A DNA stretch of 64,000 bases. Origin: Escherichia coli. Lineage in GTDB: Bacteria; Pseudomonadota; Gammaproteobacteria; Enterobacterales; Enterobacteriaceae. The stretch is taken from assembly GCF_003019035.1 (NCBI RefSeq), contig NZ_CP027447.1; one strand, written 5' to 3'. Shown one piece after another: positions 38,154 to 39,388 of this stretch. Every line of letters starts with the position of its first letter. The first letter of the stretch is position 1. The translations under genes were made by a program, and so were the position numbers. Below the pieces are notes generated by a model. The model was not told where the DNA came from. It saw nothing but the letters and a program-made list of their open reading frames with translations, and searched no databases.

Positions 38154-39086
38154 ATGGATGCACCGAGTACCACACCGCATGATGCGGTATTTAAACAATT
38201 TTTAATGCATGCGGAAACGGCTCGCGACTTTCTGGATATTCATTTGCCAGCGGAGCTACGCGAACTGTGTGACCTCGACACGCTGCATCTTGAGTCGGGG
38301 AGTTTTATTGAGGAAAGCCTGAAAGGACACAGCACGGACGTACTCTATTCCGTGCAAATGCAGGGCAATCCCGGTTATTTGCATGTGGTGATTGAACATC
38401 AAAGCAAGCCGGATAAGAAAATGACCTTTCGCATGATGCGCTATGCCATTGCCGCCATGCACCGGCATCTGGAGGCGGATCACGATAAGCTGCCGCTGGT
38501 GGTGCCGATTCTGTTTTATCAGGGCGAGGCCACACCTTATCCGCTCTCAATGTGCTGGTTTGATATGTTTTACTCGCCGGAGCTGGCGCGACGCGTTTAC
38601 AACAACCCTTTCCCGCTGGTGGATATCACCATCACACCGGATGACGAAATCATGCAACATCGGCGGATTGCGATTCTCGAACTACTGCAAAAACATATTC
38701 GCCAGCGCGACTTAATGTTATTGCTGGAGCAACTGGTCACGCTGATTGACGAAGGGTACACTAGCGGAAGTCAGTTAGTTGCCATGCAAAACTATATGCT
38801 GCAACGCGGTCATACTGAACAAGCGGATTTGTTTTATGGTGTGCTGAGAGACAGGGAAACGGGAGGGGAGTCTATGATGACGCTGGCGCAGTGGTTTGAA
38901 GAGAGGGGAAGACAGGAGGAAAGGCAGGAGGTAAGACAGGAGGTAAGACAGGAGGTAATACAAGAGGTTAGACAGGAAGTAAGACAGGAATTCGCCCTGC
39001 GTTTTCTGAGTAAAGGGATGTCTCGGGAAGACGTTGCAGAGATGGCAAATTTACCTCTTGCTGAGGTTGATAAGCTGATTAGCTAA
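38154..39086 (+). CDS. rpnC: Recombination-promoting nuclease RpnC (YadD; PD-(D/E)XK, transposase_31 / YhgA-like family)
   Basis: 310-aa ORF; N-terminal nuclease region with candidate catalytic D62, E81, Q83 (TDVLYSV...VIEHQSK); C-terminal tail with (R/I)QEV repeats. Confidence 0.9.
   Translation: MDAPSTTPHDAVFKQFLMHAETARDFLDIHLPAELRELCDLDTLHLESGSFIEESLKGHSTDVLYSVQMQGNPGYLHVVIEHQSKPDKKMTFRMMRYAIAAMHRHLEADHDKLPLVVPILFYQGEATPYPLSMCWFDMFYSPELARRVYNNPFPLVDITITPDDEIMQHRRIAILELLQKHIRQRDLMLLLEQLVTLIDEGYTSGSQLVAMQNYMLQRGHTEQADLFYGVLRDRETGGESMMTLAQWFEERGRQEERQEVRQEVRQEVIQEVRQEVRQEFALRFLSKGMSREDVAEMANLPLAEVDKLIS
38874..39086 (+). CDS. Putative intragenic small protein (RpnS-like antitoxin) from internal in-frame start within rpnC
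   Basis: Strong internal SD gggaggggag 4-13 nt upstream of in-frame ATGATG at 38874; would yield a 70-aa protein equal to the RpnC C-terminal tail. Confidence 0.5.
   Translation: MMTLAQWFEERGRQEERQEVRQEVRQEVIQEVRQEVRQEFALRFLSKGMSREDVAEMANLPLAEVDKLIS
38910..38990 (+). repeat. 12-nt tandem codon repeat (AGACAGGAGGTA-like, about 7 units) in rpnC tail
   Basis: AGACAGGAGGAA AGGCAGGAGGTA AGACAGGAGGTA AGACAGGAGGTA ATACAAGAGGTT AGACAGGAAGTA AGACAGGAA read directly; encodes RQEE/RQEV repeats. Confidence 0.9.
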
Positions 39087-39154
39087 GTTATCTGCATTAT
39101 CAGTTATAGCCAGATAATTGTTATTGTTAACTGACCAGATAATCAAGGGAACAT

Positions 39155-39388
39155 ATGGAAATAAAGACACGGAGAGAAACCAGGCAGACGTTAGCGCAGT
39201 GGTTTGAAGAGAAGGGATTTCAGAAGGCGTATCAGGAGGCGTTTCAGAAGGGATATCAAGAGGAACTCCAGAAGGTAAGACAGGAATTCGCCCAGCGTTT
39301 TCTAAGTAAAGGGATGTCTCGGGAAGACGTTGCAGAGGTGACAACTTTACCTCTTACAGAGATTGATAAGCTAATTAACTCTAACTAA
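39155..39388 (+). CDS. Stand-alone Rpn C-terminal tail-domain paralog (77 aa), putative RpnS-like protein or tail cassette
   Basis: RBS aaggga 6 nt upstream of ATG; product MEIKTRRETRQTLAQWFEE...EFAQRFLSKGMSREDVAEVTTLPLTEIDKLINSN parallels the RpnC tail TLAQWFEE...EFALRFLSKGMSREDVAEMANLPLAEVDKLIS; about 90% nucleotide identity over 39275-39382 versus 38979-39086. Confidence 0.6.
   Translation: MEIKTRRETRQTLAQWFEEKGFQKAYQEAFQKGYQEELQKVRQEFAQRFLSKGMSREDVAEVTTLPLTEIDKLINSN

Follow-up and report, generated by a model that had tools for sequence, protein, structure and literature searches.

The rpnC locus of Escherichia coli: a nuclease gene with an internal start for its putative antitoxin and a second, free-standing tail copy

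The gene analyzed here is the chromosomal rpnC (yadD) of E. coli, and it very probably encodes a toxin–antitoxin pair, in which the nuclease toxin RpnC-L is held in check by RpnC-S, an antitoxin translated from an internal start codon of the same gene and matched to its toxin by the number of four-residue repeats in their shared tail. This reading is correct but not new: a gene-within-gene antitoxin was established for this same gene in 2023, and the DNA studied here adds no new kind of system. What we can add to the published work is a small extra observation. Downstream of rpnC lies a second copy of the tail, rpnCSs, whose repeat core differs in length from that of RpnC-S in every two-gene locus that we compared.

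Identity, setting and family of rpnC

The window, by which we mean the whole stretch of DNA analyzed (64 kb), extends from secA to fhuB and belongs to the ordinary core chromosome of E. coli. The listing of open reading frames and their translation place a 310-aa ORF between panD and a 77-aa ORF, the local order being yadE, panD, rpnC, the 77-aa ORF, panC and panB. K-12-type genomes carry rpnC at the same panD-rpnC-panC position, and K-12 RpnC and the RpnC of the window share 94% of their amino acids. By position and sequence, the window gene is the ortholog of K-12 rpnC. The 1.6-kb rpnC region is 100% identical to that of E. coli strain SCU-301, and of 5426 complete E. coli genomes all but two (5424) contain a match to it. 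The features that define the full-length gene are as follows.

38154–39086, + strand: rpnC (yadD), full-length ORF for the RpnC-L toxin, a PD-(D/E)XK nuclease (ORF listing, K-12 identity, synteny, RefSeq)
38172–38774, + strand: PF04754 domain, residues 7–207 (Pfam hmmscan and TIGR01784)
38337–38402, + strand: catalytic core codons D62/E81/Q83 (BLASTP alignment to K-12 RpnA)

An earlier, sequence-based reading of this DNA (the original prediction) had proposed a 310-aa ORF with candidate catalytic residues D62, E81 and Q83 and an N-terminal match to the Rpn/Transposase_31 family. The coordinates and residues are as claimed, and the family assignment is borne out by two profile searches. With Pfam hmmscan, PF04754 (Transposase_31/YhgA-like) covers residues 7–207 (model positions 1–201 of 203, i-Evalue 9.1e-87), and the Rpn family model TIGR01784, whose cut-off is 52.1 bits, gives a score of 272.4 bits, with profile positions 218–273 matching the RpnC tail. 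When RpnC is aligned to K-12 RpnA by BLASTP, D10, D62 (38337–38339), E81 (38394–38396) and Q83 (38400–38402) lie opposite D11, D63, E82 and Q84 of RpnA, and the RpnA substitutions D11A, D63A, E82A and Q84K abolish or alter its phenotypes (Kingston et al., PMC5350276). On one point of biochemistry the original prediction has to be corrected. It described the family as Ca2+-dependent nucleases, whereas purified RpnA is a Mg2+-dependent DNA endonuclease that is stimulated by Ca2+ (PMC5350276).

The RefSeq record of this strain (SCU-301) names RpnC a ‘putative transposase’, leaves the internal RpnC-S without annotation, and lists the downstream 77-aa product as a ‘hypothetical protein’. Taken at face value, such names (‘putative transposase’, ‘ISNCY family transposase’) would have rpnC code for a transposase belonging to an element akin to an insertion sequence. 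This view is favored by the Pfam and NCBIfam names and by the two independent rpnC insertions between panC and panD inferred by Kingston et al. (PMC5350276). However, the NCBIfam ‘ISNCY transposase’ model reaches 332 bits, below its cut-off of 583; terminal inverted repeats, target-site duplications and defined ends are lacking, and autonomous PD-(D/E)XK transposases are unknown (Zhong et al., PMC10400941). In addition, the gene's place on the chromosome is the same in 5424 of the 5426 E. coli genomes. Given the score below cut-off, the missing element ends and the fixed position, we rejected the transposase reading, whose chance of being right we regard as negligible, and treat RpnC as an Rpn-family nuclease. 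The only practical value of the present DNA is in annotation: RpnC, RpnC-S and rpnCSs could all be given correct names.

The internal start and the repeat tail

Inside rpnC, toward its 3′ end, the following features bear on the production of RpnC-S.

38734–38762, + strand: weak candidate internal promoter, speculative (liberal scan, 8/12 matches)
38861–38870, + strand: internal Shine-Dalgarno (SD) GGGAGGGGAG (sequence; same in K-12; GGAGG invariant in 21 loci)
38874–38879, + strand: internal translation start ATG ATG, M241 and M242 (frame check, 21 loci, RpnA alignment, K-12 iTIS)
38874–39086, + strand: rpnCS, intragenic antitoxin ORF, 70 aa (69 aa from M242; translation)
38909–38989, + strand: 12-bp tandem repeat AAGACAGGAGGT, giving (R/I)QEV four-residue repeats in helix 1 (Tandem Repeats Finder)

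The original prediction held that a near-consensus SD precedes an in-frame ATG ATG from which a 70-aa tail would be read, and positions and frame were confirmed. The two ATGs are codons 241 and 242 of rpnC, with 70 aa left before the stop, and the GGAGG core of the SD (38862–38866) lies 7 nt from the first ATG and 10 nt from the second. The gap between the SD element and the first ATG, given originally as 4 nt, is really 3 nt (tct, directly after 38870). This configuration is more than a chance occurrence, being unique in the window. In a scan of 19,069 internal codons, taken from every ORF of ≥200 aa on either strand, the only in-frame ATGs with a GGAGG 4–10 nt upstream were these two, at 38874 and 38877.

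The start is also conserved. In all 21 of the E. coli rpnC loci compared, ATGATG and the GGAGG core are unchanged, and variation in the SD region is confined to one position, 38868, where codon 239 begins with G, A or C. Between ∼95 bases before and ∼30 bases after the internal ATG, the window differs from K-12 at 2 positions, with SD and ATGATG identical. Moreover, BLASTP sets RpnC M242 opposite M244 of RpnA, the RpnA-S start that has been validated by mutation and whose ribosome-binding site occupies codons 240–241 (PMC10400941). Those RpnA codons (AAGGAG) fall opposite codons 238–239 of RpnC (GGGGAG). As RpnA M244 aligns with RpnC M242, the internal start is positionally homologous in the two genes; and since it aligns with M242 and not with M241, RpnC-S may have a length of 69 aa instead of 70 aa.

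Direct evidence of translation comes from K-12. Ribosome profiling with Onc112 and with retapamulin gives peaks at the internal start of K-12 rpnC, and both RpnC-S and RpnC-L are detected when SPA-tagged on the chromosome (Zhong et al., PNAS 2023, PMC10400941). yadD is also among the genes with a conserved in-frame iTIS and raised local synonymous-site conservation (Meydan et al., bioRxiv 10.1101/520783). One could nevertheless suppose that the SD and ATGATG do no more than code, incidentally, for Gly-Gly-Glu-Ser-Met-Met, and that the 310-aa protein is the only product, given that SD-like sequences arise by chance within genes and that the translation data come from K-12 rather than from the window's strain. 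Several observations argue against this. The site is the sole one of its kind among the codons scanned; K-12, where the initiation peaks and the tagged small protein were seen, has the identical SD and ATGATG; none of the 21 loci departs from this start, despite hypervariable sequence directly downstream; it corresponds in position to a mutationally validated RpnA start; and published work shows loss of the small protein on start mutation for rpnA and detection of RpnC-S in K-12. We therefore consider an incidental origin highly unlikely, and RpnC-S to be, very probably, a genuine product of the internal start.

Internal transcription start sites have been mapped in all rpn genes by dRNA-seq (PMC10400941). 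In the window, a stricter consensus promoter scan returned no + strand site within rpnC, and a liberal scan returned one weak candidate, comprising TGGTCA and TACACT separated by a 17-nt spacer.

Downstream of the internal start, the tail is repetitive, as had been predicted. Tandem Repeats Finder reports 6.8 copies of the 12-bp unit, which encode the four-residue units RQEE/RQEV/IQEV, starting near residue 11 of the 70-aa RpnC-S. A hallmark of the RpnL-RpnS family is a run of repeats 8–20 residues past the internal Met, varying in number by strain, and rpnC shows it: in the sampled E. coli strains, RpnC tail lengths are 50, 54, 58, 60, 66, 70 and 74 aa, with 4-aa steps.

To what extent does the tail resemble RpnA-S, whose structure is known? 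RpnA-S crystallizes as a three-helix bundle, with its repeats in the long first helix (PMC10400941). An AlphaFold2 model of RpnC-S, which rests on a shallow alignment of 14 tails and is of moderate confidence (mean pLDDT 71, pTM 0.47), has helices at residues 4–46, 51–57 and 62–69. This predicted topology fits the description of RpnA-S, the agreement being limited to topology. Foldseek comparison of the model with the PDB gave only non-significant, HTH-like matches over the last ∼33 residues (E ≥0.55), and RpnA-S was absent among the 50 matches listed. The HTH-like matches are in line with the comment of the RpnS authors that RpnS shows a relationship to HTH motifs in HHpred (PMC10400941), without amounting to a fold-level confirmation of the RpnS fold. 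PDB sequence searches with full-length RpnC and with the 70-aa tail yielded nothing significant and no Rpn structure, the short and highly divergent chain of RpnA-S being beyond the reach of such a search.

When RpnL inhibits growth, induces SOS and cleaves DNA, a matching RpnS blocks all three effects (PMC10400941). For RpnC, RpnC-S blocks the SOS response induced by RpnC-L, as read from an SOS reporter, only when the numbers of four-residue repeats match; one extra repeat in one partner abolishes protection, and the same addition in both restores it (PMC10400941). In the case of RpnA, the complex of RpnA-L with RpnA-S has the composition L2S2 (PMC10400941). Ribosome profiling, tagging and antitoxin activity have thus all been published for K-12 rpnC, whose SD and ATGATG are identical to those of the window, and they uphold the central claim of the original prediction, a toxin with an internally started tail antitoxin. 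Indeed, the tests of internal initiation and antitoxin action that accompanied that prediction have been done on the K-12 ortholog with the predicted outcome, and hence the interpretation is right and already known. Searching the literature for work on RpnC after 2023 brought up nothing beyond the 2023 paper and its commentary.

Putting these elements together, we envisage the following. rpnC is inserted between panD and panC. Left unchecked, RpnC-L, an Rpn/YhgA-like PD-(D/E)XK DNA endonuclease, would damage DNA. Ribosomes would also initiate at the internal SD and ATG ATG (38874/38877), on what is probably a shorter transcript made from an internal promoter, to yield RpnC-S, a predicted three-helix protein of 69–70 aa with the same sequence as the tail of RpnC-L. 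RpnC-S would then pair with the same helix of RpnC-L, in the manner of the RpnA L2S2 complex, and so block the nuclease, with the number of four-residue repeats in the long first helix setting which S pairs with which L. Repeat number could shift by slippage or by recombination, and because the L and S reading frames overlap, toxin and antitoxin would always change together. As regards the stoichiometry of the RpnC complex and the trigger that would release the toxin, we extrapolate from the family.

The second tail copy, rpnCSs

The 77-aa ORF between rpnC and panC is the free-standing tail gene published as rpnCSs (PMC10400941 Fig. 2I).

39155–39388, + strand: rpnCSs, free-standing tail gene, 77 aa (ORF; 63% identity to the RpnC tail; PMC10400941 Fig. 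2I)
39210–39263, + strand: 12/24-bp tandem repeats within rpnCSs (Tandem Repeats Finder)

It begins 68 bp past the rpnC stop and has its own upstream ATG, preceded by an SD-like AAGGGAA at 39145–39151. Residues 12–77 are 63% identical to the RpnC tail, and at the DNA level 38879–39084 is homologous to 39187–39380. Judging from the sequence, the ancestral SD and ATGATG have been lost in rpnCSs and the new upstream ATG is used as the start. The tandem repeats encode KGFQ/KAYQ/EAFQ-type units, which also vary in number by strain. RefSeq calls the product either ‘hypothetical protein’ or ‘RpnC/YadD family protein’. Pfam gave nothing significant for the 77-aa protein, including no DUF4351, which in some species has been linked to RpnS genes that stand alone (PMC10400941). 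By eye, we also noted a short direct repeat, CCAGATAAT, with two copies in the 68 bp that separate rpnC from rpnCSs (39111–39119 and 39135–39143); the pair could be due to chance, a regulatory site or a duplication scar.

With a second, free-standing RpnS-like gene only 68 bp downstream, the locus is not quite self-contained. In the original prediction it was termed a self-contained toxin–antitoxin defense module. The second tail gene had been overlooked there; the toxin–antitoxin arrangement stands and the self-containment has to be qualified, while the defense role is a matter of extension from the family, to which we return below.

rpnCSs is present in ∼1,540–1,910 of the 5,426 complete E. 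coli genomes (∼28–35%). Its absence from K-12 is due to a clean deletion that runs from shortly past the rpnC stop to ∼70 bp before panC (73 bp in locus L002). In O157:H7-type genomes (L008), the rpnC tail matches the 3′ half of rpnCSs together with its downstream flank; these are therefore rpnC-rpnCSs fusion alleles. Both routes of loss, deletion and fusion, are mentioned in PMC10400941. In one further genome, E. coli Nissle 1917 (NZ_CP007799.1, L024:1648–2500), the panC gene beside rpnCSs is annotated as a frameshifted pseudogene, which may be a sequencing error.

We then compared the repeat cores of the two tail copies within each locus. In a small sample of 18 two-gene E. coli loci (L003–L024), counted without phylogenetic correction, the RpnCSs core was never equal in length to that of the co-resident RpnC-S (0/18 loci, 13 distinct pairs), and the differences ranged from 4 to 20 aa. 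In the window, the cores measure 35 aa in RpnC-S and 31 aa in RpnCSs, a difference of one repeat. Allele pairing varies as well: the RpnC protein WP_000339917.1 has a 77-aa RpnCSs partner here and a 67-aa partner elsewhere. Repeat types have also changed places between the two positions: in locus L004 (1295–1821), rpnC has the KGIE type and rpnCSs the QEVR type, opposite to what is seen in the window. This exchange of repeat types and varied pairing of alleles suggests that the two tail copies recombine with each other.

Given that a mismatch of one repeat abolishes neutralization and that the lengths never matched in this sample, it becomes questionable whether RpnCSs acts on the neighboring RpnC-L. 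It follows that rpnCSs might not be a spare antitoxin for that toxin at all, a proposal that we raise while rating it as unlikely. Were it true, rpnCSs could be a silent donor cassette that swaps the toxin tail by recombination, an idea that fits both the O157:H7 fusion alleles and the repeat types swapped between the two positions. Another possibility is that it serves as a decoy or sensor for some other partner. The length mismatch thus offers a small lead on the role of the second copy.

Biological role and comparison with known systems

Within this family, phage protection has been shown for the plasmid-encoded RpnP2, which protects against T2, T4 and T-even phages of the BASEL collection, and not for RpnC (PMC10400941). 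Because the antiphage activity is known for RpnP2 and not for RpnC, a defense role can be ascribed to RpnC only by family membership: RpnC may contribute to defense.

The surroundings of rpnC do not themselves point to defense. Its neighbors are core genes (pan, the yad fimbrial genes, fhu and ace), and it sits in the pan operon rather than in a defense island. PADLOC v2, which has no Rpn model, gave no significant match for RpnC; neither a defense island nor a curated model thus marks the locus as a defense system. PADLOC did report a match of rpnCSs to RmrA (E 7e-5, 19.6 bits), located at the HTH-like end, which we set aside as probably a generic HTH resemblance.

These considerations leave room for RpnC being a toxin–antitoxin pair with a role other than phage defense, either as a housekeeping or transfer-related recombination nuclease or as a selfish, addiction-like module. 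In keeping with such a role, overexpressed RpnC raises RecA-independent recombination 2.9-fold (PMC5350276), the gene is embedded among core metabolic genes, no PADLOC model matches it, and the authors who found phage protection for RpnP2 alone allow housekeeping roles for Rpn proteins (PMC10400941). On the other hand, tail repeats vary to an extreme degree within the species, a pattern suggestive of the diversifying selection that typifies defense genes; rpn genes are enriched near defense genes across genomes (PMC10400941), and the homolog RpnP2 does protect against T-even phages. We regard a non-defense role as a genuine possibility, though on the doubtful side. The reading of rpnC as a repeat-matched pair of RpnC-L toxin and RpnC-S antitoxin is shared by both accounts of its role.

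The closest known system is RpnC/RpnC-S of K-12. Besides the panD-rpnC-panC position, the 94% protein identity and the identical SD and ATGATG, the two have in common their domain order and an HTH-like C-terminal end. They differ mainly in the tail. The window RpnC has three extra four-residue repeats (a core of 35 aa, compared to 23 aa in K-12), and the repeats are of another type: seven (R/I)QEx/(R/I)QEV-type units in the window versus KGIE-type units in K-12. The C-terminal residues are …DKLIS in the window and …DKVINLI in K-12. Finally, the window strain retains the downstream rpnCSs, which K-12 has lost by deletion.

K-12 RpnA is more distant, with 53% identity over residues 5–256, yet the catalytic D/E/Q residues and the position of the internal start are conserved. 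Past that start, the RpnA and RpnC tails are unrelated in sequence; K-12 RpnA-S is 49 aa in length, and has a marked insertion point rather than a run of repeats (PMC10400941). Between the RpnA and RpnB antitoxins, there was no cross-protection in the case tested (PMC10400941).

The pairing of rpnC with rpnCSs also has a counterpart. In rpnE-ypaA (rpnESs), a free-standing copy of the tail likewise lies directly downstream of the rpn gene, and the rpnC-rpnCSs layout of the window does not differ from the published one (PMC10400941). The plasmid-encoded RpnP2-LS belongs to the same family and follows the same gene-within-gene toxin–antitoxin logic; what sets it apart is that RpnP2 is the sole member with demonstrated phage protection (PMC10400941).
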